64,000 nucleotides of DNA, taken from assembly GCA_016712285.1 (NCBI GenBank), contig JADJRK010000001.1, positions 2,113,098 to 2,177,097 on the forward strand, in the 5' to 3' direction. Source of the DNA: Planctomycetota bacterium. Lineage in GTDB: Bacteria > Planctomycetota > UBA8742 > UBA2392. The position numbers were made by a program, and so were the translations under genes. Positions within the stretch are counted from its first letter, which is position 1, and each line of letters starts with the position of its first letter. The notes beneath the pieces are model-generated. The model was given only the letters and a program-made list of their open reading frames with translations. It made no database searches and was not told the origin of the DNA. Below, in pieces: positions 1 through 22,122 of the stretch.

Positions 1-102
1 GCCGCGCGACACCAGCACAAGTGCGCCGCGCAGTACCAGTGTAGTCAGCGGCTGCCATACCCGGTTGAGGGTCAGCACGCGCTCAAGCTCAATGCGGGTC
101 AT
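1..102 (-). CDS. hypothetical protein, N-terminal fragment (gene runs off the window start)
   Basis: ATG (revcomp cat at 100-102) preceded by strong RBS AAAGGAGACGCC. The ORF reads MTRIELERVLTLNRVWQPLTTLVLRGALVLVSRG... to the window edge. Confidence 0.4.
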   Translation of the reverse strand, partial: MTRIELERVLTLNRVWQPLTTLVLRGALVLVSRG

Positions 103-122
103 GGCGTCTCCTTTCTGGTGAG

Positions 123-195
123 TGGTGGCGGCGGAGGGAGTTGAACCCTCAAGCCCGGGATTATGAATCCCGGCTGCGCACCGGCGCGCGCCGCG
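123..195 (-). tRNA. tRNA-Met (anticodon CAT), initiator-like, atypical
   Basis: Minus-strand sense ends ...CGCCGCC-A-CCA; T-arm GAGGG-TTCAACT-CCCTC; anticodon arm CGGGA-TTCATAA-TCCCG with the GGG/CCC pairs typical of initiator tRNA; 1:72 mismatch; D-arm shortened. Confidence 0.55.
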
Positions 196-201
196 AAAAG
201 T

Positions 202-278
202 TGGTGTGCCCGGCAGGGCTTGAACCTGCACCTCGCGGGGTAAGAACCCGCTGCTCTGCCGCTCGAGCTCCAGGCACG
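202..278 (-). tRNA. tRNA-Lys (anticodon CTT)
   Basis: Acceptor GTGCCTG/CGGGCAC-A-CCA; D-arm GCTC..GAGC; anticodon arm GCGGG-TTCTTAC-CCCGC; T-arm CAGG-TTCAAGC-CCTG. Confidence 0.7.
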
Positions 279-284
279 TCGAAT

Positions 285-358
285 GGAGCCGCCGGCGGGA
301 GTTCAACCCGCACCGCGCCGCTACGAGGGGCGCATCCTGGCGTTAGACGACAGCGGCT
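285..358 (-). tRNA. tRNA-like gene, Glu-type scaffold with anticodon CGT (Thr?), atypical, possibly pseudo-tRNA
   Basis: Acceptor GCCGCTG/CGGCGGC-T-CCA; Glu-like D-arm TCGTCTAACGCCAGGAT; anticodon loop CTCGTAG with a C:C closing mismatch; T-loop TTGAACT (G at position 56). Confidence 0.4.
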
Positions 359-359
359 T

Positions 360-433
360 GGTTCCCGGTGGGTGAATCGAACACCCGTCGCTTGTTTGTA
401 AGACAAGGGTCCTGCCATTGGACGAACCGGGAG
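360..433 (-). tRNA. tRNA-Val (anticodon TAC)
   Basis: Acceptor TCCCGGT/ACCGGGA-A-CCA (U1:A72); D-arm GTCC-AATGGCA-GGAC; anticodon arm CTTGT-CTTACAA-ACAAG; T-arm GGGTG-TTCGATT-CACCC. Confidence 0.65.
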
Positions 434-438
434 AATGT

Positions 439-511
439 GGTCGCGGAGGTGGGATTCGAACCCACGGTCTCTTGCTCCCGGGGCAAGCGTCCGGCCTCTG
501 GACTACTCCGC
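439..511 (-). tRNA. tRNA-Pro (anticodon CGG), atypical C33
   Basis: Acceptor CGCGGAG/CTCCGCG-A-CCA (C1:G72 and A73 as in tRNA-Pro); D-arm GTCC-AGAGGCC-GGAC; anticodon arm CTTGC-CCCGGGA-GCAAG; T-arm GTGGG-TTCGAAT-CCCAC. Confidence 0.55.
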
Positions 512-514
512 GAA

Positions 515-561
515 AGCCCGCGCCGGACGGCGCGGGCGCCCGCTGCTTCCGCAGCGGGCTT
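515..561. other. pair of perfect GC-rich hairpins (9-bp stems, 4-nt loops) flanked by A/T runs; terminator-like or processing spacer inside the tRNA array
   Basis: GCCCGCGCC-GGAC-GGCGCGGGC directly followed by GCCCGCTGC-TTCC-GCAGCGGGC then TTT; AAA precedes it, so a TTT run follows on either strand. Confidence 0.5.
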
Positions 562-568
562 TCAGTGT

Positions 569-643
569 TGGTGAGCGTACGGGGAATCGAACCCCGACCT
601 TCTGATTGAGAATCAGAGATCCTGGCCGTTAGACGATACGCCC
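569..643 (-). tRNA. tRNA-Glu (anticodon CTC)
   Basis: Glu-type D-arm TCGTCTAACGGCCAGGATC (compare E. coli TCGTCTAGAGGCCCAGGAC); anticodon arm TCTGA-TTCTCAA-TCAGA; T-arm CGGGG-TTCGATT-CCCCG; ends ...TACGCTC-A-CCA. Confidence 0.75.
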
Positions 644-718
644 TGGCGACCCCACGGGGAGTTGAACCCCGATCTCCCGATAGACAATCGGGCATCGTAG
701 CCGTTGGACCATGGGGCC
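644..718 (-). tRNA. tRNA-Asp (anticodon GTC)
   Basis: Acceptor GGCCCCA/TGGGGTC-G-CCA (G73); anticodon arm CCCGA-TTGTCTA-TCGGG; T-arm CGGGG-TTCAACT-CCCCG; abuts the previous tRNA with 0-nt spacing. Confidence 0.8.
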
Positions 719-721
719 AAG

Positions 722-795
722 TGGTAGAGACACGTGGAGTCGAACCACGATCGGTCGATTATCAATCGACTGCTCTGCCATTGAGCTATGCCTCT
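722..795 (-). tRNA. tRNA-Ile (anticodon GAT)
   Basis: D-arm TAGCTCAATGGCAGAGC; anticodon arm GTCGA-TTGATAA-TCGAC; T-arm CGTGG-TTCGACT-CCACG; acceptor AGAGGCA/TGTCTCT-A-CCA (A1:U72). Confidence 0.7.
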
Positions 796-800
796 GAATC

Positions 801-874
801 TGGCTGGCTCGGGTGGACTCGAACCACCATCACAAGCTCCGCAAGCTTGCGTCCTTTCCTTTAGACGACGAGCC
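801..874 (-). tRNA. tRNA-Arg (anticodon GCG) on a Gln/Glu-like body, atypical
   Basis: Acceptor TGGCTCG/CGAGCCA-G-CCA (U1:A72, G73); D-arm GTCT-AAAGGAAA-GGAC; anticodon arm CAAGC-TTGCGGA-GCTTG; T-arm GGTGG-TTCGAGT-CCACC. Confidence 0.5.
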
Positions 875-882
875 ATGAGTGT

Positions 883-925
883 GGAGCCCGCCTTCGCCAA
901 GGCTTCGGCGGGCATGCCTGCGGGC
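883..925. repeat. REP-like palindromic repeat, copy 1
   Basis: GCCCGCCTTCGCCAAGGCTTCGGCGGGCATGCCTGCGGGCG; 7-bp outer stem GCCCGCC/GGCGGGC; core CTTCGCCAAGGCTT shared with copies at 1046, 1207 (inverted) and 1305. Confidence 0.6.
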
Positions 926-961
926 GTCAAATGCTGGACAGGCGCCCTCCGGGTGGAAGGC

Positions 962-1036
962 TGGTGGACCGGCTGGGAGTTCAACCCAGTCTGCGTGCTT
1001 GCAAGGCACGCGTGCTCGCGTTGACACTACCGGCCC
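962..1036 (-). tRNA. tRNA-Cys (anticodon GCA), atypical T-loop
   Basis: Acceptor GGGCCGG/CCGGTCC-A-CCA; anticodon arm CGTGC-CTTGCAA-GCACG; T-arm CTGGG-TTGAACT-CCCAG (G56 instead of C56). Confidence 0.6.
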
Positions 1037-1045
1037 ATAGTGTTG

Positions 1046-1088
1046 CGTCCGCCTTCGCCAAGGCTTTGGCGGACAGTGGCCGCGCCAT
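1046..1088. repeat. REP-like palindromic repeat, copy 2
   Basis: GTCCGCCTTCGCCAAGGCTTTGGCGGACAGTGGCCGCG. Confidence 0.6.
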
Positions 1089-1099
1089 TGCGCAGCAAC

Positions 1100-1174
1100 T
1101 GGAGCCCCCGGGCGGAATCGAACCGACCGTCCCCTGACTGGCAATCAGGAATTCTGCCACTGAACCACGAGGGC
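1100..1174 (-). tRNA. tRNA-Gly (anticodon GCC)
   Basis: Acceptor GCCCTCG/CGGGGGC-T-CCA (U73 as in tRNA-Gly); D-arm GGTTCAGTGGCAGAATTCC; anticodon arm CCTGA-TTGCCAG-TCAGG; T-arm CGG-TTCGATT-CCG. Confidence 0.8.
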
Positions 1175-1206
1175 TTTGTATTTCGGCGCAGTTGTCAAAG
1201 AACTGG

Positions 1207-1240
1207 CTTGCCAGCCGAAGCCTTGGCGAAGGCTGGTGTG
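1207..1240. repeat. REP-like palindromic repeat, copy 3 (inverted orientation), overlapping the 3' end of tRNA-Phe
   Basis: CCAGCCGAAGCCTTGGCGAAGGCTGG is the reverse complement of the CCAGCCTTCGCCAAGGCTTCGGCTGG core. Confidence 0.55.
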
Positions 1241-1307
1241 CCGGCGTGGACTTGAACCACGATTTCCGCGGCTTCAACGCGGCGCTCTACCGTTGAGCTA
1301 CCGGCAC
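1234..1307 (-). tRNA. tRNA-Phe (anticodon GAA)
   Basis: Acceptor GTGCCGG/CCGGCAC-A-CCA; D-arm TAGCTCAACGGTAGAGC; anticodon arm CCGCG-TTGAAGC-CGCGG; T-arm CGTGG-TTCAAGT-CCACG. Confidence 0.8.
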
Positions 1308-1350
1308 CCGCCTTCGCGAACGCTTTGGCAGACATGCCTGGGTGCGGGCG
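1305..1350. repeat. REP-like palindromic repeat, copy 4, overlapping the 3' end of tRNA-His
   Basis: CACCCGCCTTCGCGAACGCTTTGGCAGACATGCCTGGGTGCGGGCG; shares the CATGCCTG..GCGGGCG tail with copy 1. Confidence 0.55.
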
Positions 1351-1411
1351 CGGAGTCGAACCGCGCCTTCGCTTTCACAGAGCGACATGCATCCGCTACA
1401 CCAACCCGCAC
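1339..1411 (-). tRNA. tRNA-His (anticodon GTG) with encoded G-1
   Basis: Anticodon arm TCGCT-CTGTGAA-AGCGA; T-arm CGCGG-TTCGACT-CCGCG; 3' end ...CCCGCAC-CCA with an extra 5' G pairing the discriminator, as in bacterial tRNA-His. Confidence 0.7.
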
Positions 1412-1417
1412 ATAACG

Positions 1418-1450
1418 CAGCGGGGACCCGTCACCGGGTCCCCGCTTTCA
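1418..1450. other. GC-rich hairpin 6 bp upstream of the tRNA-His 5' end (TTT run on plus strand only)
   Basis: GCGGGGACCC-GTCACC-GGGTCCCCGC followed by TTTCAG on the plus strand. Confidence 0.45.
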
Positions 1451-1584
1451 GCGCATACGCGCCTTCAAAGCGTCGGACCCCCTGGGCCATGACCGCGCAG
1501 TGCCCGCTCACGGCGGGGCGCGAAATCTCGGATGGCGTTTGGCTGCGACACGATCATCTCCTTGGACGCGAGCTTACCGCACGT

Positions 1585-1622
1585 ATATTGACGTGTCAAT
1601 ACTTTTATTGACGCGTCAATAC
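1585..1622. promoter_or_regulatory. two 17-bp palindromic operator-like sites, 21 bp centre to centre
   Basis: TATTGACGTGTCAATAC and TATTGACGCGTCAATAC (TTGACGCGTCAA is a perfect palindrome), separated by TTT. Minus-strand reading contains TTGACA -35-like hexamers. Sits ~175 bp upstream of the tRNA array and ~40 bp downstream of the rtcA stop. Confidence 0.5.
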
Positions 1623-1658
1623 TGTAACGCCTGCCAGTTCCTGCGGGTTTCAACTATT

Positions 1659-2663
1659 TCATGGCGCAACGGTCACGCGCCATGCGCCATCGTGCTCAGC
1701 GATGTCAATCTCGACGTCCAGAAAGCGGCGGATCGTCTCGATGTTCGTCGTTGTGTGCAGCGTGGGCTTCAGCGTCGTGAAACTGCCGCCGGCGCCCAGC
1801 GCCATCGGCAGCAGCAACTGGTCAGCCAGGTGCTCACCCACCGGAGCCTCTGACTTCAGATAAGTCTTCATCTCGCGCACAGCCTCTTTGGCCACGGTCT
1901 CTGCGGCTTTGCCGCGCTTTCCGAAAGCGGTGACGACTTCCGTGATATGCTCGCCGCGCGCAAACACGCACACCGCGTTGCCGGGGCCCAAGCCGCGCGG
2001 GCGTTCCTGGCGCAGATCGCTTACATTCAACGCGCGCCCGATGATGCCGAGTTCGCGCTCGCCGACGTTTTCGGGCAGGTTGGCGACGTAGGCCACAGCC
2101 GCCAGCGCCACTACACCACGCTCGTGCAGCTTGAGCCGCTCGCGCACCGTCCACGGCTGGATCTGCGCGTGAATCTCCCCGCCACCGGCTGGGAAGAACC
2201 CCAGTCGCTCGGCCCGCAGTTCGACTTCAATGCCTGCACGCGCAACGACAGGCAGAAACGAGTGCAGCAGAAAATCCAGTGGCGGGGCCCAGGCGTTGTG
2301 CGTGCCGCCCTCGACGCTCACGTGGCTTTCGCTGTCAGCATGCAGCAGCGGGTACAGCACCGTTTGCAGCACCAGCGAAGCGCTGCCCGCCGAGCCAACA
2401 CTGAACCGGTACTTGCCCGGGTAGATGCCCTGCGGCGCAAATGCCAGGTCGCGGCTGCCGATCTCGTCGCCGGTGACGTCAGCGTTGCTGACCTGCTGCG
2501 CAGCACGCACACACGCCAGGTGCTGCTTGCCCAGCCCCGGCTTTTCGCGGCCGGCACGAATGTTGAACAGACGAAACGGCTGGCGCGTGACAATCGAAAG
2601 CGCGAGCGAGGTGCGAAGCACCTGCCCGCCGCCTTCGCCCGCGCTGCCGTCAATCTCGATCAT
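1659..2663 (-). CDS. rtcA: RNA 3'-terminal phosphate cyclase RtcA
   Basis: 334 aa; N-terminus MIEIDGSAGEGGGQVLRTSLALS is the RtcA family signature; start is 1 bp after the rtcB stop (operon). Confidence 0.9.
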   Translation of the reverse strand: MIEIDGSAGEGGGQVLRTSLALSIVTRQPFRLFNIRAGREKPGLGKQHLACVRAAQQVSNADVTGDEIGSRDLAFAPQGIYPGKYRFSVGSAGSASLVLQTVLYPLLHADSESHVSVEGGTHNAWAPPLDFLLHSFLPVVARAGIEVELRAERLGFFPAGGGEIHAQIQPWTVRERLKLHERGVVALAAVAYVANLPENVGERELGIIGRALNVSDLRQERPRGLGPGNAVCVFARGEHITEVVTAFGKRGKAAETVAKEAVREMKTYLKSEAPVGEHLADQLLLPMALGAGGSFTTLKPTLHTTTNIETIRRFLDVEIDIAEHDGAWRVTVAP

Positions 2664-2664
2664 G

Positions 2665-3888
2665 TCAACCCTTCACGCACACGACCTGCTTCAGTGTGTG
2701 CAGGATCTCGACCAGGTCGCTCTGGGCCTCCATCACCGCGTCGATGTCCTTGTACGCAGCCGGCGTTTCGTCGATCACGTCCTTATCTTTGCGGCACTCG
2801 ACGCCCGCCGTGGCAGCCTCGTGGTCTTTCACCGTGAACTTCTTGCGCGCCTCGTTGCGGCTCATGACGCGGCCCGCGCCGTGGCTGCACGAGTGGAAGC
2901 TCTCCTCGCAGCCCTTGCCGCACACGATGTAGCTGCGGGCACCCATGCTGCCGGGAATGATGCCGAGCTCGCCCTTGCGGGCTGACACGGCGCCTTTGCG
3001 CGTGACGAACACCTGCTCGCCGTAATGCTCTTCGCGCTGCACGTAGTTGTGGTGGCAGTTCACGGCCATCAGCTCGGCGTTGAATTCGGGCACCAGGCCC
3101 GTGATCGCAACGGCATTGATCACCGCGCGCATCATGCACTCGCGGTTGATACGTGCATACTCCTGCGCCCAATGCACGGCTTCGACGTAGTCGTCAAAGT
3201 GCTCGGTGCCTTCGTCAAGATATGCCAGGTTTTCATCGGGCAGGTTCTTCATGTGCTGGCGCATGTCGTTCTTCGCAAGCTGGATGAAGTAGGTCCCGAT
3301 GCGGTTGCCCACGCCGCGCGAGCCGCTGTGCAGCATGAACCACACGTGGCCTGCCTCGTCGAGGCAGACCTCGATGAAATGGTTGCCCGTGCCAAGCGTG
3401 CCAAGCTGGCCGGCGGGATGGGCGTTGCGCTCAAGCTTGGGGTACTTGTCGGTGATTGCCTTGTAGCCCGCTTCCAGGGCCTTGTACGCCGCCGCCACGT
3501 GCTCGGGCGGGTCGTTCCAGGCGCCGCGGTCGTTGCGGCCGCCACGGTCGGTGCGACCGTGCGGCACGGCGCGCTCAATCGCGCCGCGAATCGGCAGCAG
3601 GTTGTCGGGCAGGTGCTCGGCTTTCAACGAGGTCTTCACGGCGCACATGCCGCAGCCGATGTCCACACCCACGGCCGCGGGAATGATCGCGGCCTTGGTC
3701 GGCACAACGCTGCCGACGGTCGCGCCGAGGCCCCAGTGCACGTCGGGCATGGCGGCGACCCACTTGTGGATGATCGGCAGCTTGGCGGTGTTGATCAGCT
3801 GCTGCTCGGCGTTGGCGTCGAAGTGAACGCCCTCAATCCACGCCTTGATCGGCTTGGCACCCTTATGAGTAATCATCTTGTACGGCAT
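2665..3888 (-). CDS. rtcB: RNA-splicing ligase RtcB
   Basis: RtcB family throughout (MPYKMITHKGAKPIKAWIEGVHFD..., NHFIEV, HNY, C-terminal HSCSHGAGR). The ORF extends to 4293 but the true start is placed at MPYKM (3888), giving the canonical 408 aa, with GAGGAC upstream. Confidence 0.9.
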   Translation of the reverse strand: MPYKMITHKGAKPIKAWIEGVHFDANAEQQLINTAKLPIIHKWVAAMPDVHWGLGATVGSVVPTKAAIIPAAVGVDIGCGMCAVKTSLKAEHLPDNLLPIRGAIERAVPHGRTDRGGRNDRGAWNDPPEHVAAAYKALEAGYKAITDKYPKLERNAHPAGQLGTLGTGNHFIEVCLDEAGHVWFMLHSGSRGVGNRIGTYFIQLAKNDMRQHMKNLPDENLAYLDEGTEHFDDYVEAVHWAQEYARINRECMMRAVINAVAITGLVPEFNAELMAVNCHHNYVQREEHYGEQVFVTRKGAVSARKGELGIIPGSMGARSYIVCGKGCEESFHSCSHGAGRVMSRNEARKKFTVKDHEAATAGVECRKDKDVIDETPAAYKDIDAVMEAQSDLVEILHTLKQVVCVKG

Positions 3889-3938
3889 GGCGTCCTCGGT
3901 CAGTACTGTACCGGAACGCAGACGGGTTGCACGCTGGT

Positions 3939-4880
3939 TCAGGCCGCCAGCCCTTCCAGCAGCATGCGCCAGGACTGCTGCTCGCGGGCCGGGTCGATCA
4001 GCGGGCGTTTGGCTTCGCAGCGCTGTTGCAGCTCGTTGTAGAAATCTCTGTCTGACTCGGCGCGCTGCAGCAAGCGCGCCAACGCTTGCGTGTCCCCCAC
4101 CTCGAACAAGCCGGGATAATCCGCACCCATGATGCCGATCGATGCGCCCATGCGACTCAGGATCGCCGGCGTGCCGCAGGCAATTGCCTCGGTCAGCACG
4201 TTGGCGCCGCCTTCCATGACTGACGTCAGCACCATCAGGTGCGATGACGCGAGCACATGCAGCGTTTCTTCGCGCGTGACTTCGCCGCGCCACTCGTAGC
4301 GCGGGTTTGCGCGCACTTCTTGTTCGGCGCGCGAGCGCATCTCCGGGTCCAGCGCGCTGCCCAAATGCACGACGCGGACGCGCGAGTCCGGCGGCAAAAG
4401 GCGCAGCGCCTCTGCCGTGCGAAACGGGTCCTTTACTTCGCGCAGGTGCCCGATCACGCAGGCCCGGAAATGATCCGATGGCCGTGGCGGCGCGTCGACC
4501 GGGGCAACAGCCGACTGGTAAATCACATGGGCGCGCTCGCGGTACTCGGGCGCCAGCTGCGTCAGCGCGTGCGGCTGCAGCACGATAAAACGATCTGCAA
4601 GCCTGACCGACAACTGCGCTTCTTCGTCGACCTGCACGTCGCGATAGATGTCGGTGCCGGTGAGCGCAAGCACGACGGGACGGCCGGGAAACTCGGCTTT
4701 GAACTTCAGGATTTCAGGATGGCTGTGCTTGGCGTGCAGCGCGACGAGCACGTCGGCGCCGTGGTCCACGAGCGTGTGCCCGAGTTGCCCGAAGATGTCG
4801 GCCCAGCGATCGGCGGTGATGCCGTTACCGCGGCGCGTGTGGCTGAACGGCGTGTGCAATTGAATCTTCAAAGGGCGCAT
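3939..4880 (-). CDS. senB: GT-B family 4 glycosyltransferase, SenB-like (selenosugar synthase candidate)
   Basis: ~313 aa; GT4 motif EGGANVLTEAIACGTPAILS; size and position next to an EgtB/SenA-family gene match selenoneine SenB. Start chosen at MRPLKIQL just downstream of the neighbour's stop. Confidence 0.5.
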   Translation of the reverse strand: MRPLKIQLHTPFSHTRRGNGITADRWADIFGQLGHTLVDHGADVLVALHAKHSHPEILKFKAEFPGRPVVLALTGTDIYRDVQVDEEAQLSVRLADRFIVLQPHALTQLAPEYRERAHVIYQSAVAPVDAPPRPSDHFRACVIGHLREVKDPFRTAEALRLLPPDSRVRVVHLGSALDPEMRSRAEQEVRANPRYEWRGEVTREETLHVLASSHLMVLTSVMEGGANVLTEAIACGTPAILSRMGASIGIMGADYPGLFEVGDTQALARLLQRAESDRDFYNELQQRCEAKRPLIDPAREQQSWRMLLEGLAA

Positions 4881-6163
4881 GTACGGAACCCGGCAAGAAT
4901 GTCGTTGCGATGGGGCGTGTAGAAGTTGCGCCAGGTGTTGCGAATCAGGCGCGAGCGCGTGCAATACGTGCCGCCACGCAGCGCCTTGAAGCCGACGAAC
5001 CAGGGCTCGCTGTATTCGCTGTACATGTCAGCGACGAAACCCGGATAGCCCTTGAACTCGGTGTCTGTCCACTCCCACACGTTGCCCAGCATCTGGCGCA
5101 CACCGAACGCGCTGTCGCCTGCCGCGTGCGCACCGACATCCACTGTGCCCGGCACGCGGGTATCGAGGTTGCCGTGCTCGGGGCGCGGCGGTTCGTCGCC
5201 CCACGGGTAAAGCCGCTTGCGCGGGCCCAGGCCGCCCTTGCCGTTTGGTTCGCAGCTTGCGGCGCATTCCCATTCGGCTTCGGTGGGCAGCCGGCGGCCG
5301 GCCCAGCGGCACCAGGCCTGCGCTTCGTACCAGCTTACGTGAATCACGGCGCGGTGCGGCTCAAGCGGCACCCACTTGTCGAACTGCCGGCGTTGCCACG
5401 CGCCGCCCTGCTTGCGCCAATACACCGGGTGCGCGCGCCCGTGTGCGATGCGCCACGCCCAGCCCTGTTCTCCCCAGTGCCTTGGATCCTCATAGCCGCC
5501 GTCGTCGACGAACGCGGCGAACTGCGACTGGCTGACGGCTGCACGGGCGATCTTGAACGGTTGCACCGTCACCGGGTGGGCCCACTTTTCGTTGTCAAAG
5601 ACGAACACGGCGTCTTTGGATGCACCAAGCATGAACGTGCCGCCGGGGATTTCAGCGTCGCCATCGAGTGGACCGGCCTCGGGAAAAACAGGGACAGGCA
5701 CCGTTGGTGCCTGTCCCTGTTTTTCGAGCTTGGGCTCGGGGTAGCCGAGTGTCTGGCGGGTGTAAGTGAACGCCTCGCCGTGCATGTCTTCGTGGTAGAT
5801 GGCGTAGCGCGTGAGGTAGAAGTCTTCAGGCGACAAACCGTCGGCGACGCGGTCGTGGATGGCCTTGCAGTACGCCAGCGTGTCCTCAAAAGAGGGCAGC
5901 GGCAGGTTCCAGCGCGTGGTGTGGGCAATGCTGATCGAGTCAAACAGCGCGTCTTCGTCCGGGCGTGTCGGCGGCAAGCCGCGCCTCTCACGCAGCACCC
6001 ACCGCGAGTAGAAGTAACTGGCGTGGCCGATTTCCCAGCGCAGGGGGTTCACAGTGGGCAAGTACGGGCCCATGAGCTGTGCTGGCGAAAGGTCAGTCAC
6101 CAGCGCCCGGCAACGCTGATGGGAGTCGTACAGTGCAGCAATCAGTGTGTCCGCATCGTTCAT
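4868..6163 (-). CDS. senA: EgtB/SenA-family sulfoxide (selenoxide) synthase (DinB-like N-domain plus FGE-sulfatase domain)
   Basis: 431 aa. DinB_2-type N-terminus with two HxxxE metal-binding motifs (HASYFYSRW, HTTRW, HEDMHGE); FGE-sulfatase-like C-terminus (RRLPTEAEWECAA, RGGTYCTRSRLIRNTWRNFYTPHRNDILAGFRTC). EgtB vs SenA cannot be distinguished from sequence alone. Confidence 0.65.
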   Translation of the reverse strand: MNDADTLIAALYDSHQRCRALVTDLSPAQLMGPYLPTVNPLRWEIGHASYFYSRWVLRERRGLPPTRPDEDALFDSISIAHTTRWNLPLPSFEDTLAYCKAIHDRVADGLSPEDFYLTRYAIYHEDMHGEAFTYTRQTLGYPEPKLEKQGQAPTVPVPVFPEAGPLDGDAEIPGGTFMLGASKDAVFVFDNEKWAHPVTVQPFKIARAAVSQSQFAAFVDDGGYEDPRHWGEQGWAWRIAHGRAHPVYWRKQGGAWQRRQFDKWVPLEPHRAVIHVSWYEAQAWCRWAGRRLPTEAEWECAASCEPNGKGGLGPRKRLYPWGDEPPRPEHGNLDTRVPGTVDVGAHAAGDSAFGVRQMLGNVWEWTDTEFKGYPGFVADMYSEYSEPWFVGFKALRGGTYCTRSRLIRNTWRNFYTPHRNDILAGFRTCAL

Positions 6164-6964: not shown

Positions 6965-7789
6965 TCAGGCGACGCGCACCGTCTGGAAAATCGATTGCAG
7001 CGTTTTCAAAACGCCCGGCAGTTCGGCCAGCGGAATCATGTTGGGGCCGTCGGAAAGCGCCTTGTCAGGCTCAGGATGCGTTTCGGCAAAAATGCCGTCG
7101 GCGCCGGCTGCCACGGCTGCGCGCGCGAGCACGGGCGCAAACTCGCGCTGGCCGCCGCTCTTGTCGCCCGAGCCGCCGGGAAGCTGTACACTGTGGGTCG
7201 CGTCAAACACCACCGGGCACCCGGTGCGCTGCATGATCGGGATGCTGCGCATGTCGGACACAAGGTTGTTGTAGCCAAAGCTGGCGCCGCGCTCGGTCAG
7301 CATGACGCGGCCTTCGGCGCCGAAGGTGTTCATCTTCGACACAACCTGGGCCATGTCCCATGGCGCGAGAAACTGGCCTTTCTTCACGTTGACGGTCTTG
7401 CCGTGCTTTACAGCCGCGTTGGCAGCGGCCTCGAGCAAGTCCGTCTGCCGGCACAGAAACGCCGGGATCTGCAGCACGTCAATCGCCTGGGCCGCAGGCT
7501 CGCAATGCTCGGGCAGGTGCACATCTGTCAGCACGGGCACCGCAAACTCTTTGCCGATGGATTCAAGCTGCTTCAGGCCTTCGTCTATACCCGGGCCCCG
7601 GAAAGACTTGCCGCTGGTGCGGTTGGCCTTGTCGAAGCTGGCTTTGAAGATGTAGGCGATGTTCAACTCGGCGCATGCGGCTTTGACGCGTTGCGCGATG
7701 ACGCGGGGCACGTCGGCGTTCTCAAGCACGCAGGGGCCCGCGATCAGAAACAGGTTTCGACCATCAAGCGTAAGTGGGCCTACCTTCAT
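6965..7789 (-). CDS. kdsA: 2-dehydro-3-deoxyphosphooctonate aldolase (KDO8P synthase)
   Basis: 274 aa; KdsA motifs LFLIAGPCVLE, KASFDKANRTS, DATHSVQLPGG. Confidence 0.9.
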   Translation of the reverse strand: MKVGPLTLDGRNLFLIAGPCVLENADVPRVIAQRVKAACAELNIAYIFKASFDKANRTSGKSFRGPGIDEGLKQLESIGKEFAVPVLTDVHLPEHCEPAAQAIDVLQIPAFLCRQTDLLEAAANAAVKHGKTVNVKKGQFLAPWDMAQVVSKMNTFGAEGRVMLTERGASFGYNNLVSDMRSIPIMQRTGCPVVFDATHSVQLPGGSGDKSGGQREFAPVLARAAVAAGADGIFAETHPEPDKALSDGPNMIPLAELPGVLKTLQSIFQTVRVA

Positions 7790-8664: not shown

Positions 8665-10152
8665 ATGCCGGACCTCCTGGTTGACATCGAAACCGCCCGC
8701 GACGGCACGCCGCTGTACCAGCGCATTGCCGACAGCATTCGCGCCGACGTGCTTGCGGGCCGCCTGCACCGCGGCGAGCGCGTACCCAGCACCCGCAGCC
8801 TTGCGCGCGAACTGAAGGTCAACCGCAACACCGTTGCCCAGGCCTACGATCAGCTGATTGCCGAGGGCTTTTTGGCTGGCAAACACGGCAGCGGCACATT
8901 CGTGGCCGATGAGCTGCCACAAGCCAACTTCAGTGTTCGCACCGCGCAAAAACAGCAACAGCCCCTGCGCCGCGTCGCGCTTGCCAACTCGCCCGCGCCG
9001 CCGCCGTTTTACCAGCGCGTGCTGGCGCCCGAGAACCCGCAGCCGCCGGCGCCGGGCTATCTGGACCTGCGACTTGGGGCGCCGGACATTGACGCCTTTC
9101 CGTTGCGGCAATGGCGGAGGGTCGTCGGCAACCAGCTGCTGGTGACGCGCCGCTACCGCATGAACTATGGCAGCGCATACGGCTTGCAGGAACTTCGCGA
9201 GGCCATTGCCGCATACCTGGGCCGCGCGCGCGGCATTGACTGCACGCACCGCAACGTGCTGATCACGTCCGGCAGCCAGCAGGGGTTGTGGCTGGCGACT
9301 TCGCTGCTGGTCGGCGCGGGCGACCAGGTGCTGATGGAAGACCCGGGCTATCTTGGCGCTGCCAGCATCTTTCGCGCGGTTCGCGCAGACTTGCGGCCGG
9401 TGCCCGTGGACAGCGAAGGCGCCCAACCGGCGGCCGTGGCGCGCATGCTTGAGAAGGGGGTGCGGCCCAAACTGTTGCATCTGACGCCCAGTCACCAGTA
9501 CCCGACGGGGGTGTCGCTTTCCGCGGGTCGGCGCATGGAAATGCTTGAGCTTGCGGCGCGTCACGGGTTCATGATTGTGGAAGACGACTACGACAGCGAG
9601 TTCCGGTACGAGGGCCGCCCCCTGCGAGCGCTGGCGGGCATCGACCAGTCGGGCGTGGTCATTTATGTGGGCAGCTTCAGCAAGGTGATGTACCCGAGCC
9701 TGCGGGTCGGGTTCGTGGTCGCGCCGGATTGGCTGATTGAGGCAATGGTCGGCTTGCGCTGGCACATTGACTTCATGCCGCCGATGCTGGAAAGCGCCGC
9801 GCTGGCACAATTCATCGCCGACGGCGACTTTGAACGTCACCTGCGACGCATGCGGTCGCAGTATGCCGACAAGCGCAAGGCGCTGGTCGATGTCTTGCAT
9901 GACAAGTTGCCGGGTGTCGCGCCTGCAACGCTGCCGCCGGGTGGCATGAAGCTGTTGCTCAATGTCCCGCCGAAACTGACGCGCGAGCAGGCGCGCGAAA
10001 GGGCCCACAAGGCAGGCGTGAGAGTCTATGACCAGAGCGCGTGCCACTTCGAGCCGGGCAAGGCGCCGAACGTGCTGACAATCGGCTTCACATCGCTGCC
10101 GCTGGCCCAGGTTGTGGAAGCCGGCGAGCGGCTGGCCGCTGCATGGACGTAA
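8665..10152 (+). CDS. MocR/GntR-family transcriptional regulator with PLP-dependent aminotransferase-like domain
   Basis: 495 aa; N-terminal winged HTH (LYQRIADSIRADVLAGRL...PSTRSLARELKVNRNTV); C-terminal fold-type I aminotransferase domain (SFSKVMYPSLRVGFVV). Confidence 0.85.
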   Translation: MPDLLVDIETARDGTPLYQRIADSIRADVLAGRLHRGERVPSTRSLARELKVNRNTVAQAYDQLIAEGFLAGKHGSGTFVADELPQANFSVRTAQKQQQPLRRVALANSPAPPPFYQRVLAPENPQPPAPGYLDLRLGAPDIDAFPLRQWRRVVGNQLLVTRRYRMNYGSAYGLQELREAIAAYLGRARGIDCTHRNVLITSGSQQGLWLATSLLVGAGDQVLMEDPGYLGAASIFRAVRADLRPVPVDSEGAQPAAVARMLEKGVRPKLLHLTPSHQYPTGVSLSAGRRMEMLELAARHGFMIVEDDYDSEFRYEGRPLRALAGIDQSGVVIYVGSFSKVMYPSLRVGFVVAPDWLIEAMVGLRWHIDFMPPMLESAALAQFIADGDFERHLRRMRSQYADKRKALVDVLHDKLPGVAPATLPPGGMKLLLNVPPKLTREQARERAHKAGVRVYDQSACHFEPGKAPNVLTIGFTSLPLAQVVEAGERLAAAWT

Positions 10153-10202: not shown

Positions 10203-13200
10203 CTATTCCTCTTCGCGTGAGCCCTTGGACGCCGCCTTCTTCTTTGCAGGCTTCTTTGCAGGCTTCTTGGCGGTCTTCTTGGCAGCCTTCTTTGCGGGCT
10301 TCTTCTTGGCTGCCTTCTTTGCCGGCTTCTTTGCGGCCTTCTTGGCGGCCTTCTTCTTTGCTGGCTTCTTCTTTGCCATGTTGCCTTCCCCCTGTGCTTC
10401 GCTTGGTTCGTTGCCGACGGCCGTTCCGGCGGCTGGTATTGTTTCCGGCGCGGGCGGGTCTTCAGGTTCTGACCCCGTTGCCGTGTTCTTCATTAACTGG
10501 CTGATGGCGCCGGATTGTACTTTTTCCCCGCGTCCGCGCCCGCCTCTCCTGCCCCTGCGACCACGCTTCTCGCCCGGCCGGCTTTCGCCTGACTCGCCCG
10601 GCTTTGCTGCGGCACGCGGGGCTGGTGCAGTCTCGCGTATGACCTCGATGTTCAACTGGTCTGGCAGCTTGTCGCCAAAGGTCACGGCTTTGCCTGCATC
10701 TGCCTTGATGCGCTGTTCGCGGGCCATGCGTTCCTGTTCACGTTCGCGCTGTTTCTTGCCGCCGCGGCGTCGTTTGCGGCGCCGTGAATCGGCATCGGCC
10801 AGCAACTGCGCGGCCTGCGGGCTGGCTGAGCCACTGGCCACTTCGGGCACGGCCACGTTGGTGCGCGACTTGTAAACGTCGCCTTTCACAAACGTGTTGA
10901 TGCGCTGGTCCATGTCGTACAGCACTCGCACGCCGCGGTCACCAACGTAGAAAAAGCGTGACTGGCCAAGGTCAAGGTCGCGCGAGTACTCGAACACGAT
11001 GCGCTTGTCGTAGGTCGCTTCCAATTCGTCGATGTCGTCGCGGAACTCGCTGTGAAGGTGGCTCAGCACGTGCGGATGAACCTGCACTGCCAGCTCTTTC
11101 ACGCGCTCTTCGACCAGCGCCAGTTTCATGCGCCGGATCAGCGAAAGGCACGAGGTCTCGGCGCTGCGCACCATGCCGAAGCCGCCGCAGGTCGGGCAAC
11201 CCACGAACGTGTATGACTTGATGCTGGGGCGCACGCGCTGCCGCGTCATTTCCATGACGCCGAACGGTGAAAAGCGCGCGACCTTCGTGCGGGCGCGGTC
11301 TTTGCGCAATTCGCGCTTCAGCAGGTTTTCCACGTCACTGCGGTGCTTGGCGCTCATCATGTCGATGAAGTCGTTGCACACAATGCCGCCCAGATCGCGC
11401 AGCCGCAGCTGGCGACAGATCTCCGGGATCGCCTCCATGTTTGTCAGGTAGGCGGTTTTCTCTGCGTCGCCGCCGCCGGTGAACTTGCCGCTGTTGACGT
11501 CGATGCTGATCAGCGCCTCGGTCTGTTCAATGAACAGATAGCCGCCGGACTTGAGCGTGACCTTCTTGTCAAAGATGTGCTCGATCTGGCTTTCCAGGCC
11601 GTTGGCGAAGAACAGCGGGATGTCGTCTTCGTACAGTTTTACGCGGTCGCGAAAGCTGGGCATCAACTGGTCAAAGAACGCCACCACGCGATCAAACACT
11701 TCGCGGTTGTCGATGACGATCTCTTCTGTTTCAGCAGTGAAATAGTCGCGTACGGCGCGAATCGCCGGGTCGCTGTCGGTGTACAGCAGGGCAGGGGCCT
11801 CGGCTTCGTGGATGCGCTCGACGATGACGCTCCACACCTTCAGCAGATAGTTCAGGTCGCGCAGCAGGTCGTCATAGCTGCGGTCAATCGCCGCCGTCCG
11901 GATAATGACGCCCATGCCCTCGGGCACGGGCAGTTTGTCGAGCATCTTGCGCAGCTCGTTGCGGGCGCCGCCGTCTTCAATCTTGCGGCTGACGCCGCCG
12001 CGATCGCTGCTGGGCGTGAGCACCATGTAGCGGCCGGGCAGGCTGATGAACGTGCTGAGCCCCGGGCCCTTGCCGCCCTGGCTGGCCTTGGTCACCTGGA
12101 CCACGACTTCCTGGTTGCGCTTGAGGATGTTCTGAATCTTCGGCGGGCCGCGGTGATAGCGGAATTGCGGGCCGGGCACGCCGCCGCTGCCGCCGTCTGT
12201 GGGCTTGCCGTCGATGTCGCGGGTACCGCTGGCGTCGGCGTTGCCGTTGGGCTGCGGCGGTGCCGACCCGTCAAGCACGCGCTTGGGCAGGTGACCGCCC
12301 CGCTTCTTGGGTGTGCGGCGCCGGCGAGGACGCTTGGACTTGGGCTTGGCTTCAGGTGCAGCTTGCGCGCCTTGCACCAGCTCCGGCGTGGGCTTCTCCG
12401 CGGCGGGTGCGGGCTCCGTGCGGTCCGGCGTTGCCGGCACTGGCGTCGGCGTTGACTCAGGGGCTTGACCCGGTACGGGTGTGGCATGGTCAGTGCGCGG
12501 TGTGCCCGTACGGCCGTCTGGGCGTCCTTCTGCACGGCCCTCACCACGGCCGCGACCGCGGCGACCGCGGCGGCGACGGCGGCGGCGCTGTTCGGCTTCT
12601 CCGGCCACAACCGGTGTCGACGCTGCACCGCTCGATGGCGCCGGCTGCGAAGCCGCGGCCTGGGGTGCAGGCACAGCCTCGAACCTGCCCGAATCTTCGC
12701 TCGCAGGCCGGGGTTCGCCCGGGGCCTCGTGCTCAGGCATGGCGACGTTCAGTGGCGAGTCCGAGACGCGATGTCCCGCCTGCCCGGAGTCCAGGGACTC
12801 AAGAAACTGGGCTTCTTCGGGCGCCTTGCCGTTGGACTCCTGCTGCGTCGAAACAAAGTCGGCAACCTCTTCGACTTCGCGCTCACGCGCGCTGTTCAGG
12901 ATCGAGTCTTCGGGCAACTGTTCTTTGACGCGCAGCGTGCGGCTGAACAGGTCTTTGACGTTTGGCGAATTTTCGTAGGCGTAGTTGATGTCGCTGATGT
13001 GCAGAAAGCCGTTTCGCTCAAGGCCCACATCGACAAAGCTGGCCTGGATGCCGGGTTCAATGTTGTTGATGATGCCTTTGTAGATGTTGCCGACGTGCTT
13101 GAGCTGGCTTGGGCGGTCAACGAAGTACTCGAAGAGTTTCCCGTTTTCCATCACCGCGATACGGCATTCGTCGCCTTCTGCGACGTTCATAAAAATCTTA

Positions 13201-13208
13201 CGTGTCAT
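10203..13208 (-). CDS. rne: ribonuclease E (Rne) with Ala/Lys-rich histone-H1-like C-terminal tail
   Basis: Catalytic N-half MTRKIFMNVAEGDECRIAVMENGKLFEY with S1 and RNase E/G domains; start set at ATG 13208 (ORF extends to 13295); C-terminus is (AKK/PAKK)n ending KKAASKGSREEE. Confidence 0.9.
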   Translation of the reverse strand: MTRKIFMNVAEGDECRIAVMENGKLFEYFVDRPSQLKHVGNIYKGIINNIEPGIQASFVDVGLERNGFLHISDINYAYENSPNVKDLFSRTLRVKEQLPEDSILNSAREREVEEVADFVSTQQESNGKAPEEAQFLESLDSGQAGHRVSDSPLNVAMPEHEAPGEPRPASEDSGRFEAVPAPQAAASQPAPSSGAASTPVVAGEAEQRRRRRRRGRRGRGRGEGRAEGRPDGRTGTPRTDHATPVPGQAPESTPTPVPATPDRTEPAPAAEKPTPELVQGAQAAPEAKPKSKRPRRRRTPKKRGGHLPKRVLDGSAPPQPNGNADASGTRDIDGKPTDGGSGGVPGPQFRYHRGPPKIQNILKRNQEVVVQVTKASQGGKGPGLSTFISLPGRYMVLTPSSDRGGVSRKIEDGGARNELRKMLDKLPVPEGMGVIIRTAAIDRSYDDLLRDLNYLLKVWSVIVERIHEAEAPALLYTDSDPAIRAVRDYFTAETEEIVIDNREVFDRVVAFFDQLMPSFRDRVKLYEDDIPLFFANGLESQIEHIFDKKVTLKSGGYLFIEQTEALISIDVNSGKFTGGGDAEKTAYLTNMEAIPEICRQLRLRDLGGIVCNDFIDMMSAKHRSDVENLLKRELRKDRARTKVARFSPFGVMEMTRQRVRPSIKSYTFVGCPTCGGFGMVRSAETSCLSLIRRMKLALVEERVKELAVQVHPHVLSHLHSEFRDDIDELEATYDKRIVFEYSRDLDLGQSRFFYVGDRGVRVLYDMDQRINTFVKGDVYKSRTNVAVPEVASGSASPQAAQLLADADSRRRKRRRGGKKQREREQERMAREQRIKADAGKAVTFGDKLPDQLNIEVIRETAPAPRAAAKPGESGESRPGEKRGRRGRRGGRGRGEKVQSGAISQLMKNTATGSEPEDPPAPETIPAAGTAVGNEPSEAQGEGNMAKKKPAKKKAAKKAAKKPAKKAAKKKPAKKAAKKTAKKPAKKPAKKKAASKGSREEE

Positions 13209-13872
13209 GTTCTTCCAGTGCTTCCGCTTCGGTTTGCGCGTCGGCAAGGATCGTGCGGGTCTTGGTGACCAGCAACCGGTTCGGATCAAGCCCAAGAATC
13301 TGCAGCAGGTCGGATGGTTTCATACCGCCATCCTGCCCGGCCTTGAGGCGCATGTTCAGCGCCCGGGCCTCGATGCTTGCCGCAAGCGTGAACTCACGGG
13401 CATCGAAATTGCGCGCCGGCTTTTTCTCGCCGCGCGAGCGGGAGAAGGCGTGCCCGGCTTGTGCCAGGAACACTTCCAGCCGCGTCTGCAGTTCCTGCGT
13501 ATCCAGTTCAGGTGGCAGTTCGCACTCGTAATCCGCCGCGATGACGCGCGGCCTGCCGGTTGCCAGTTCAGCCTGCTTCAGCGTCAGCCCCGCGGGCATC
13601 TGCCTTGCAAGCTCGTCTACTACGAATTCCGGCGCCGGTGATTCAAGGTCGTGCTGCAGGTCGATGTCGACAATTTCGTCGAGGCTCTCGACCCCCAGCG
13701 GCAACGCAAGCGCAAACGAGACCTTCGGGTGAGGGTTGAAACCCTGTGTGTAAGCGACATTCAGCCCGGACCTGCGCAGCGCCAGCTCAAACACCCGCAT
13801 CAAGTCATGATGCGAGATGAACCTCAGCGCCCCGCGCTTTTCAAAGCGCATCCGGTAACGGCTGAAAGCCAT
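13198..13872 (-). CDS. DUF2344 (TIGR03936-type) protein commonly encoded next to RNase E
   Basis: MAFSRYRMRFEKRGALRFISHHDLMRVFELALRRSGL; start uncertain (ORF extends to 14010); 11-bp overlap with the rne start. Confidence 0.65.
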   Translation of the reverse strand: MAFSRYRMRFEKRGALRFISHHDLMRVFELALRRSGLNVAYTQGFNPHPKVSFALALPLGVESLDEIVDIDLQHDLESPAPEFVVDELARQMPAGLTLKQAELATGRPRVIAADYECELPPELDTQELQTRLEVFLAQAGHAFSRSRGEKKPARNFDAREFTLAASIEARALNMRLKAGQDGGMKPSDLLQILGLDPNRLLVTKTRTILADAQTEAEALEEHDT

Positions 13873-21686: not shown

Positions 21687-21698
21687 TTGACGCGTCAA
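21687..21698. promoter_or_regulatory. third copy of the TTGACGCGTCAA palindrome
   Basis: Identical 12-bp palindrome to the site at 1609-1620. Confidence 0.3.
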
Positions 21699-22122
21699 GG
21701 TTTCGGAAACAAATCGGGCTGGCCGTGCGTTCTATTCGCGATGCGTTTGGACGTTGATTTCTGACTTCGGAGAGAGCCGTGTTAGCCCCCTTTTCTTCTT
21801 TTGAATCACCTTTGGCCGGCGTTGAGTTGCGCCGGGACAAACCCGTTTCGCGCCAGGCTTACGCCCGTCGCAACCGCCCAAGCCTGCGTGCCCGCATGGC
21901 CGACGCTGTGCTCTACCGCGCACTGAAGCTCGTTCGCGTGGCACTGCGCAAACGCAGGCAGCGCCGCCGCGCCCGTTGCGCCACGCCGCTGGCCCGCATG
22001 TCGGGCTGTGCGTAGCCGCAACACCGGGTAACGCCGTTCCAGATTCAAGAATTCTTCGCCGGTAACAGGTGCTGATGCCCCGCGCTCTGCCCTACAATGC
22101 CTTGCTCAATCGGGAGCGGGCG

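Follow-up and report, generated by a model that had tools for sequence, protein, structure and literature searches.

Why should a bacterium keep thirteen tRNA genes, several of them odd in form, packed into little more than a kilobase directly behind two genes for RNA repair? The question arises from a 64,000-nucleotide (nt) stretch of a Planctomycetota genome (assembly GCA_016712285.1, contig JADJRK010000001.1, positions 2,113,098 to 2,177,097), called here, over its whole length, the window. On its minus strand, rtcB and rtcA are followed by the tRNA genes (positions 1411 down to 123), and these by a gene for an HNH endonuclease. The answer favored here, with moderate confidence, is that this is a chromosomal HNH-linked tRNA array built into an RtcBA locus, a stress-induced reserve or decoy set deployed together with RtcBA.

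A tRNA array directly downstream of rtcBA

ARAGORN identifies 13 tRNA genes between positions 123 and 1411, all on the minus strand, and none in the remainder of the window. They carry 13 different anticodons within 1.29 kb (about 10 genes per kb), the gaps between them range from 0 to 86 nt, and all 13 encode the 3' CCA. Chance would not come near to placing thirteen tRNAs in 1.3 kb and none in the remaining 62.7 kb. With default filters, the tRNA model of Rfam accepts 11 of the genes, with scores of 43 to 69 bits, and with permissive filters it accepts a twelfth, Thr-CGT, at 37.4 bits. The original prediction for this DNA, that thirteen tRNA genes lie on one strand within 1.3 kb, is borne out (13 by ARAGORN, 12 by Rfam); the strand, which it did not state, is the minus strand.

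Directly upstream of the array and in the same orientation lie rtcB (2665..3888, 407 amino acids from the ATG at 3888; Pfam RtcB, 4e-130), whose start was placed from the L002 relative described below and from the sequence, and rtcA (1659..2663; RNA 3'-phosphate cyclase; Pfam RTC, 4.7e-76). A single nucleotide separates the stop of rtcB from the start of rtcA. The HNH gene begins 20 nt past the last tRNA gene, at an ATG at 102-100, and only its 5' end (1..102, minus strand) lies within the window, the gene continuing past the left edge. Its first 18 amino acids are those of the 202-residue HNH protein of the L001 relative, which matches Pfam HNH at 1e-13.

The setting is chromosomal, with genes for RNase E, ThiG, and DAHP synthase in the window and a GC content of about 63% throughout, array included. 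By megablast, positions 1-6000 have no match to phage DNA, and there are no phage genes here; against plasmids, the same segment gave only distant matches in the rtcB region (72.8 to 73.6% identity) and an 84-nt match at 5259-5342. By this test, the idea that the region came from a phage or a plasmid is rejected.

In the order of transcription, the first gene of the array is tRNA-His(GTG) (1340..1411; 43.5 bits by Rfam), followed by tRNA-Phe(GAA) (1234..1307; 69 bits), tRNA-Gly(GCC) (1100..1174; 51.4 bits), tRNA-Ala(TGC) (962..1036; 47.5 bits), tRNA-Arg(GCG) (801..875; 58.3 bits), and tRNA-Ile(GAT) (722..795; 67.1 bits). Next come tRNA-Asp(GTC) (644..718; 51.6 bits), tRNA-Glu(CTC) (569..643; 59.3 bits), tRNA-Pro(CGG) (438..512; 61.1 bits), and tRNA-Val(TAC) (359..432; 60.4 bits), and the array ends with tRNA-Thr(CGT) (284..357), tRNA-Lys(CTT) (202..277; 52.6 bits), and a tRNA-like Met(CAT) (123..195). 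The last of these is the sole failure against the Rfam tRNA model; its best matches are to other tRNA-like families, all below threshold. Twelve of the isotypes first assigned stand, the gene with anticodon CGT being Thr-CGT, and the thirteenth, taken to be Cys-GCA (962-1036), is Ala-TGC, its G3:U70 invariant in five orthologues. Likewise, the gaps of 0 to 6 nt ascribed to the 123-875 half are found at every junction there except that between Pro and Glu, which is 56 nt. At the Glu-Asp junction, the CCA end of one gene touches G1 of the next with no gap at all, so a cut by RNase P alone would leave a mature CCA end.

An old and dispensable module

A look-up of the exact RtcA protein gave no match. 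The nearest relatives are Planctomycetota metagenome-assembled genomes (MAGs), at three loci with RtcA identities of 94% (L001), 89% (L002), and 76% (L003); a betaproteobacterial host, considered at first, is rejected on these grounds. Synteny of L001 and L002 with the window extends over more than 11 kb, at 86 to 88% nucleotide identity, and the order of the array is unchanged. The L002 array is without Lys, and the Thr slot of L001, missed by ARAGORN, was recovered by Rfam. Five further loci (L069, L071, L072, L076, and L077) were retrieved via homologues of the HNH protein, and the order in all is rtcB, (rtcA), array, HNH; their RtcA proteins are 51 to 62% identical to the window's. The module, comprising rtcB, rtcA, promoter and operators, a leader open reading frame (ORF) with its hairpin, tRNAs, and HNH, is therefore present at seven related loci, and the HNH gene comes after the array in all relatives. 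The size of the array varies: L069 has 13 tRNAs, the HNH gene, and then Gln and Trp; L071 and L072 have 10 to 11 tRNAs, L076 has 14, and L077 has 4. The relatives' Gln, and sometimes Trp, sit past the HNH gene, for a total of 14 to 15 tRNA genes. L003 keeps rtcBA, has no array, and differs in its flanks.

Since synteny persists down to RtcA identities of 51 to 62%, the module is old, ancestral to the clade, and vertically inherited. Judging from L003, it is also dispensable. The original prediction saw in the array a horizontally acquired accessory element. The accessory part of this is supported: the array has been lost or reduced in L003, L077, and (for Lys) L002, its HNH gene is of an array-linked kind, and in L001 and L002 a canonical stand-alone Thr-CGT gene lies a few kb from the array (8 kb in a relative), scoring 72 to 74 bits with Rfam against 37 for the array copy. 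By their gene content, these loci make the array appear accessory, not part of the core tRNA set. Recent acquisition, on the other hand, is contradicted by the host-like GC and the deep synteny, and the GC of the array, proposed as a point to check, does not differ from that of its surroundings (about 63% in both). An ancient transfer of the module is possible, given the occurrence of the HNH family on plasmids and phages of other phyla. The array and stand-alone Thr-CGT genes are 61% identical, the median of unrelated tRNA pairs, which rules out the array gene as a recent housekeeping duplicate.

HNH genes and tRNA arrays in other phyla

All HNH homologues with at least 50% identity whose context was fetched sit within or next to a tRNA array, in some cases one of different composition (L078-L080). 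A 45% homologue in Lignipirellula has no tRNA array alongside. At 36 to 43% identity, the same HNH family recurs in array contexts of other phyla, on plasmids and in phages: a Nostoc plasmid (42%), where the HNH gene precedes 21 tRNAs; a Mycolicibacterium plasmid (40%), where it lies inside an array of 27; Myxococcus phage Mx1, where it stands between tRNA genes; and two Polyangiaceae MAGs (36 to 38%), where it is found at the array ends.

The Polyangiaceae loci (L011, 2740-9948, and L018, 4626-9897) consist of rtcR, an array of 20 or 7 tRNAs that includes Arg-GCG, and HNH, divergent from rtcBA. Among the 68 RtcA loci fetched, four have an array of at least 7 genes within 10 kb, and these belong to two lineages. 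By its gene order, the Polyangiaceae arrangement shows that an HNH-linked array was joined to an Rtc locus a second time, independently. The idea that these arrays and the planctomycete ones share an ancestor was considered and found no support: the gene order and the point of attachment differ, and the HNH proteins are only 36 to 38% identical.

Anticodons and codon usage

Codon usage was counted over 3903 codons, taken from nine genes of the window that have Pfam support. The anticodon in the array is the Watson-Crick cognate of the host's top codon for 11 of the 13 amino acids (among them Arg, with CGC at 70% of its codons, Gly, with GGC at 75%, and Lys, with AAG at 79%); the tRNAs Val-TAC and Ala-TGC have U34. 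Since the anticodons fit the most-used codons, the array looks like a minimal set for bulk codons, not a supplement for rare ones. The original prediction had mentioned two purposes for acquired arrays. With 11 of 13 anticodons cognate to the most-used codons, relief of a codon-usage mismatch loses its footing, and the other, a link to tRNA damage, gains from the presence of rtcB-rtcA directly upstream.

Fast divergence within a constrained fold

Are these working tRNAs or decaying ones? Fifteen groups of orthologues from eight loci (the window and the seven related loci) were compared over 255 stem pairs. Of these, 124 are invariant, 104 show two-sided changes that preserve pairing, 21 show one-sided changes, and 6 are only broken, and 28 of 1530 cells are unpaired. 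The counts for the His acceptor are inflated, because the register chosen by ARAGORN varies with or without G-1. An example is the T stem of Arg-GCG, which differs from that of L001 and L002 by a double compensatory change. The array tRNAs are thus shown to diverge fast and yet, to judge from their pairing, to remain under strong selection for the cloverleaf and the L-shaped fold.

The elbow of the tRNA tells the same story. T-loops with G56 (TTGAACT) had been noticed in two genes, and they are indeed present, in Thr-CGT and Ala-TGC; in both, GC replaces GG in the D-loop, giving C19:G56. Among orthologues, the tertiary pair 19:56 covaries through G:C, C:G, A:U, and U:A. In Ala, it is C19:G56 in the window, L001, L002, and L069 and G19:C56 in L076; in Thr, it is C19:G56 in the window, L002, and L076 and canonical in L071 and L072; in Gly, the window has the canonical pair, L069 and L076 have C19:G56, and L077 has A19:U56. 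A19:U56 is also found in His of L069 and L076, and U19:A56 in Gln of L069. Polyangiaceae arrays, too, have swapped pairs. No swap at 56 was found in the arrays of the Nostoc and Mycolicibacterium plasmids, where every T-loop has C56 and the sole non-canonical T-loops are a few of TGCAA or ATCG type.

The identity elements have fared well. Discriminators and identity pairs agree with the isotypes assigned by anticodon: G3:U70 in Ala, G-1:C73 (encoded) in His, G73 in Asp, U73 in Gly, and C1:G72 with A73 in Pro. What is expected of an elongator tRNA (fold, CCA, identity elements) has been kept, the exceptions being the aberrant Met-CAT and C33 in Pro. The latter oddity, reported at the outset, is present in Pro-CGG, and different loci have it in Pro, Thr, or Ala. 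So too the unusual acceptor starts were seen correctly: U1:A72 in Val, Arg, and His (after G-1) and A1:U72 in Ile. The claim of a Glu-type body bearing the anticodons CGT and GCG holds for the D-arm (tcGTCTAA..GGA is alike in Glu, Thr-CGT, and Arg-GCG) and fails over the whole sequence, where Thr-CGT is nearest to Ala (72%). Thr-CGT further has a C.C mismatch at 31:39.

Met-CAT, initiator-like in look, is the most aberrant of the set. It has a C1xC72 mismatch, odd stem lengths (3 bp in the D stem, 6 in the anticodon stem), and a single nucleotide between the acceptor and D stems. Its orthologues retain the 1:72 mismatch, as C.C or U.U, and their stems show compensatory changes. Together, the free covariation of the normally invariant G19:C56 and the recurrent C33 make these arrays a natural data set on which features of a tRNA can be changed without loss of function.

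Two slots call for separate mention. The Lys slot is the fastest evolving. Its copy in L001 (12273-12347) is strongly diverged, with the T-loop TGCAATC and GC in the D-loop, and the gene has been lost from the equivalent region of L002 (12247-12308). The same association of a D-loop GC with a TGCAA T-loop is seen again in Gly of L071 and L072, a recurrence that suggests a second type of D-loop/T-loop covariation. In the Arg slot, L071 and L072 (both 7336-7411) have the anticodon ACG, the usual bacterial form, with A34 read as inosine, and the window and five other loci have GCG. The difference may represent either a switch of anticodon or a replacement within one slot.

The region between rtcA and the array

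If the array is switched on and off, the means might be sought in the region from 1412 to 1658, before the first tRNA gene. Seven nt past the rtcA stop begins the motif TGAAAC-N17-CGTT (1626..1652, minus strand), the only match in the 64 kb (the mean in shuffled sequence is 0.21), and it occupies the same place in 8 of 8 loci. By the form of the consensus, we take it to resemble promoters of extracytoplasmic function (ECF) sigma factors. Next, at 1586..1621, come the putative operators, a pair of palindromes of 12 bp each (TTGACGYGTCAA and TTGACACGTCAA) with 20 bp between them. These (TTGACGCGTCAA, TTGACACGTCAA) are invariant in 8 of 8 loci save for two central bases, and such fixity of sequence, beyond mere complementarity, points to protein-binding sites. 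The downstream palindrome holds TTGACA, 17 nt ahead of TAAGCT (1576-1571), which makes a second candidate promoter at 1599-1571; the latter element was scored in 6 of the 8 loci and reads TAnnnT in those 6.

Beyond the palindromes lies a leader ORF (MIVSQPNAIRDFAPRRERALRGHGPGGPTL, 1465..1551, minus strand) of 28 codons from a GTG at 1551 or 30 from an ATG at 1557, with the ribosome-binding site AAGGAG. The same frame is open in 8 of 8 loci, over 28 to 35 codons and with a ribosome-binding site, the +2 frame is stopped in 8 of 8 and the +1 frame in 5 of 8, and a 6-nt indel between lineages is in frame. The peptide itself is unconserved save for a C-terminal G/S-P-T/P. A terminator-like GC hairpin with a 12-bp stem, the proposed attenuator, follows (1419..1446, minus strand), and only 7 nt remain between it and tRNA-His, too short for another promoter. 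Across the eight loci, 9 of 11 pairs of the hairpin are invariant and 2 of 11 have two-sided changes.

The final codons of the leader (1470-1480, GGGGTCCGACG) are able to pair with the 5' arm of the hairpin. When the nascent leader is folded as far as the hairpin loop, the minimum-energy structure in 8 of 8 loci pairs that arm with the conserved GGGGTCC (1474-1480), which lies within the last 5 or so codons of the ORF. As predicted by these foldings, leader ORF, GGGGTCC, and hairpin are arranged as in an attenuator that senses ribosomes. No terminator separates rtcA from the array, so transcription of rtcBA would also reach the leader. A Y RNA or another known RNA was considered for the leader and set aside, Rfam giving no match above threshold (weak scores for YrlA and CC2171 were far below).

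Copies of the operator occur elsewhere. A third exact copy of TTGACGCGTCAA is found in the window at 21687-21698. It is intergenic, follows a hairpin, and lies upstream of a small, basic ORF on the plus strand (about 21779-22015). It may mark a further member of the regulon or may be due to chance, the expectation being about 0.06 exact copies in 64 kb. L002, L069, L071, and L072 have single extra copies, which in L071 and L072 lie 327 nt upstream of rtcB; no copy precedes rtcB in the window, such a position being seen in those two loci only. A scan of metagenome and viral contigs for the operator pair turned up only an unrelated, iteron-bearing phage-like element without tRNAs. This phage- or plasmid-like element (L074, 3040-3260, and L075, 9000-9240; IMG/VR UViG_3300037961_002543) has tandem iterons, TTGACCCGTCAAC and TTGACGCGTCAAC, that contain operator half-sites, and it is probably unrelated to the operators of the array.

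Spacers and neighboring genes

The 56-nt spacer between Pro and Glu (513..568, minus strand) folds into two neighboring, strong, GC-rich hairpins (-43.7 kcal/mol). Other spacers contain a hairpin-forming element of 23 to 32 nt, CGCCTTCGCCAAGGCTTYGGCGG, present in four copies per 64 kb, exclusively in array spacers: 887..918 (CGCCTTCGCCAAGGCTTCGGCGG), 1048..1075, 1205..1236 (inverted), and 1307..1338. It is also found in array spacers of L001, L002, L069, and L070. The gap between His and Phe, which the fourth copy fills, is 32 nt in the window and just 1 to 2 nt in L001 and L002, so the element has spread within the array. Either a role as a processing signal or an origin as a miniature mobile element is conceivable.

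The genes upstream of rtcB vary among loci. Just upstream of rtcB in the window (3886-3935) is the motif TG(C/A)AAC-N15-TA(A/C)(C/A)GT, conserved in L069, L071, L076, and L077. It looks like the -35 portion of the promoter motif ahead of the array, which hints that one sigma factor may serve both. L069 has a Ro60/TROVE (Rsr) gene about 3 kb upstream of rtcB (1-540), as in rsr-Y RNA-rtcBA operons, and L076 has a protein of 770 amino acids with sigma-70-r2/r4 domains encoded directly upstream of rtcB. In the window, a MocR-type regulator with a GntR helix-turn-helix and an aminotransferase domain is encoded 5 kb from rtcB (8665-10152, plus strand). The neighboring RNase E/G ORF (10203-13295, minus strand; 1030 amino acids) has a catalytic domain that starts at residue 418, reflecting either a long N-terminal extension or an over-called start.

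Possible roles of the array

How might such a locus serve its host? Stress induction together with RtcB and RtcA is proposed by analogy to Anabaena's trn operon, whose rtcB and HNH gene are co-induced by ribosome inhibitors. The array would normally be silent and would come on together with rtcBA upon damage to translation or to the tRNA pool, with ribotoxins, anticodon nucleases, and ribosome inhibitors as possible triggers. It would then supply a minimal set of reserve (or decoy) tRNAs, whose odd anticodon loops and elbows might let them escape whatever inactivates the housekeeping tRNAs, while RtcB and RtcA would reseal cleaved RNAs. Control might be exercised in two layers. The first would be the promoter region, with its ECF-type motif and two palindromic operators. 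The second would be the translated leader, whose 3' codons would pair with the 5' arm of the terminator-like hairpin: efficient translation of the leader would lead to termination, and stalled or absent ribosomes would permit read-through into the array. The HNH endonuclease is regarded as the usual companion of this family of arrays, mobility being one candidate role. The union of array, HNH, and RtcB across a deep planctomycete clade, with a second fusion in Polyangiaceae, argues that spare tRNAs and RNA repair by ligation belong to one damage response.

One may go a step further and see here a self-contained module against damage to translation, in which the leader peptide reports the state of the ribosomes and the tRNA pool, an anti-terminator admits reserve tRNAs that evade the damage (with C34 or G34 where a modified U34 or I34 would stand, C33, and swapped elbows), and RtcBA repairs the damage. 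This fuller version is possible but rather doubtful. We know of no tRNA operon under ribosome-mediated attenuation, and this would be the first. If true, the module would be direct genetic evidence of one defense pathway that joins arrays to Rtc, assembled independently in Planctomycetota, Myxococcota, and Cyanobacteria. Whatever the fate of the fuller version, the conserved promoter, operators, and leader hairpin are concrete handles that can be mutated to learn how the array is switched.

Several observations weigh against the proposed role and its control. All changes in the leader ORF among the window, L001, and L002 are non-synonymous, so the sequence of the peptide is not conserved, and the leader is possibly a non-coding structured RNA. 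The covariation in the hairpin is weak, because the hairpin is nearly invariant; its tail has 3 to 6 U of 8 across loci (4 of 8 in the window); and consensus scans made no call of a sigma-70 promoter and did not call the hairpin as a terminator. No regulator gene was found near the array: the window has no RtcR homologue (by tblastn over the 64 kb, the neighbors being unrelated genes), no Ro60 or sigma homologue, and no counterpart of the sigma-like and TPR proteins encoded beside rtcB in relatives. The direct case for redundancy with the housekeeping set is Thr-CGT alone, in L001 and L002, and old vertical inheritance would fit a plain housekeeping operon equally well if other copies of these tRNAs are absent.

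Might the locus instead be a selfish cassette, an HNH-type homing endonuclease and a self-perpetuating array that came to rest beside rtcBA by accident and bring the host little or no benefit? Such a cassette would account for the HNH family with its arrays on plasmids and phages of many phyla, for the gain and loss of array genes (4 in L077, no Lys in L002, none in L003, a different set in L079 and L080), and for the multiplication of small repeats in the spacers, and the literature treats such arrays as horizontally mobile (PMC8421152, PMC4758250). It is less easily reconciled with synteny down to 51% RtcA identity and host-like GC, with strong purifying selection on stems and tertiary pair, with anticodons that suit the host's major codons, or with a dedicated, conserved regulatory region ahead of the array. 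Moreover, fusion to Rtc has occurred at least two independent times, in addition to the cyanobacterial link to rtcB (PMC8421152). The selfish cassette is for these reasons unlikely.

About equally improbable is a role outside translation, with the array tRNAs as decoys or sponges for tRNA-targeting toxins or as substrates or signals of the Rtc system, for example fragments ending in a cyclic phosphate. Physical coupling to rtcBA, and to rtcR in Polyangiaceae, is what one would expect in that case, and the sensor domain of RtcR is described as responding to damaged tRNA in enterobacteria (Salmonella work cited in PMC10272220). A sponge role was put forward by the authors of the Anabaena study (PMC8421152), and the deviations at C33 and the elbow fall at positions important to the ribosome. 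A pure decoy, however, would need neither identity elements nor CCA nor anticodons that track codon usage, all of which have been kept, and decoys would be expected to mimic, not depart from, the anticodon loops of housekeeping tRNAs.

Finally, a housekeeping operon, the lineage's main source of these 13 tRNAs and merely placed after rtcA, would explain the age, vertical inheritance, and genome-like GC of the array, its match to major codons, and the CCA and identity elements in all genes, but it is very unlikely in view of the nearby canonical Thr-CGT with twice the score, the absence of the array from L003 and its reduction to 4 genes in L077, the broken universal positions (C33, pairs other than G19:C56, the aberrant Met), the lack of Leu, Ser, Tyr, Cys, and Asn genes, the operator pair and hairpin ahead of the array, and the presence among the 13 of four C34 isoacceptors (Lys, Glu, Pro, Thr), whose codons by wobble rules are also read by the U34 tRNAs needed for A-ending codons. 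The proposal of a reserve or decoy set deployed with RtcBA remains the favored reading.

Comparison with known systems

Arrays of tRNA genes are widespread, and a functional link has been made experimentally only for that of Anabaena. The locus described here is of a known kind, the HNH-linked L-arrays already described in cyanobacteria and mycobacteria. Cyanobacterial L-arrays have conserved HNH genes alongside and rtcB nearby (PMC8421152), mycobacterial tRNA array units have embedded, conserved HNH genes (PMC5966550, PMC12803027), and arrays in Planctomycetes have been noted before (PMC4758250, PMC8421152). Like other L-arrays, the planctomycete array consists of non-periodic, co-transcribable genes in one orientation with a linked HNH gene; the patchy distribution and horizontal spread of L-arrays are not seen within the clade, given its synteny and host GC.

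A close parallel is the trn operon of Anabaena sp. PCC 7120 (Santamaria-Gomez et al. 2021, PMC8421152), an L-array induced by translation inhibitors, co-regulated with rtcB and an HNH gene, and repressed by TrcR (PMC8421152, PMC10272220). Both are long arrays on one strand, partly non-canonical and, in the planctomycete probably, supernumerary; the HNH genes linked to them encode proteins of one family (42% identity to the copy on the Nostoc plasmid), and both have an association with rtcB and repeated operator-like sites at the promoter. They differ in that the planctomycete array is chromosomal and directly downstream of rtcB-rtcA, that its HNH gene is downstream rather than upstream, that its genes number 13, against 26, and include none for class II tRNAs, and that its operators are 12-bp palindromes (TTGACRYGTCAA) rather than the direct repeats of TrcR. 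It is also preceded by an ECF-type motif and a leader ORF with a hairpin, has been vertically inherited over a deep clade, and is known from sequence alone.

The tRNA array units of Mycobacterium (Morgado and Vicente 2018, PMC5966550; Yano et al. 2026, PMC12803027) and those of Acidithiobacillus and others (Tran et al. 2016, PMC4758250) are likewise dense, are accompanied by embedded or adjacent HNH genes of the same family (40%), and contain structurally deviant tRNAs; they are redundant with chromosomal tRNAs, as the planctomycete array probably is. They comprise 20 to 40 genes for 19 to 20 amino acids, mostly on plasmids, phages, and integrative and conjugative elements, with no linkage to Rtc reported. 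By the definition of a unit in Tran 2016 (at least 20 genes, at least 2 per kb), the array described here falls short in number, with 13, and is ample in density, with 10 per kb.

From the side of RNA repair, the locus resembles the Rtc operon (rtcBA with RtcR and sigma-54) and Salmonella's rsr-Y RNA-rtcBA operon in its adjacent, co-oriented rtcB-rtcA and in having tRNAs or tRNA-like RNAs at the locus. Unlike these, the window has no divergent rtcR (encoding an activator with CARF and sigma-54 domains), Ro60, or match to Y RNA, RtcR being found in the Polyangiaceae loci, and the linked RNAs are 13 complete tRNAs, in place of the Salmonella Y RNA with its tRNA-like domain. The tRNA clusters of phages (the SegB region of T4, mycobacteriophage clusters C and M, and jumbo phages with RtcB, PMC7824862) also combine tRNAs with HNH or homing endonucleases and sometimes RNA ligases, and they have been proposed to counter defenses that target tRNA. 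In contrast to them, the planctomycete array is chromosomal and syntenic, has no phage genes, and carries anticodons suited to the host's major codons, not to those rare in the host. The leader shares with the attenuators of the trp and his operons and ermK a short ORF with a ribosome-binding site, a segment of the ORF that can pair with the 5' arm of a GC hairpin, and a tail containing U; it differs in that its targets would be tRNAs, that it lacks a run of regulatory codons and has a weak U-tail, and that the whole is a prediction from sequence.

Relative to all of these, what is new is the operonic fusion with rtcBA in Planctomycetota, with its parallel in the rtcR fusion of Polyangiaceae; the different control elements, among them a candidate leader-peptide attenuator for tRNA genes; and the extensive covariation of the 19:56 elbow pair.

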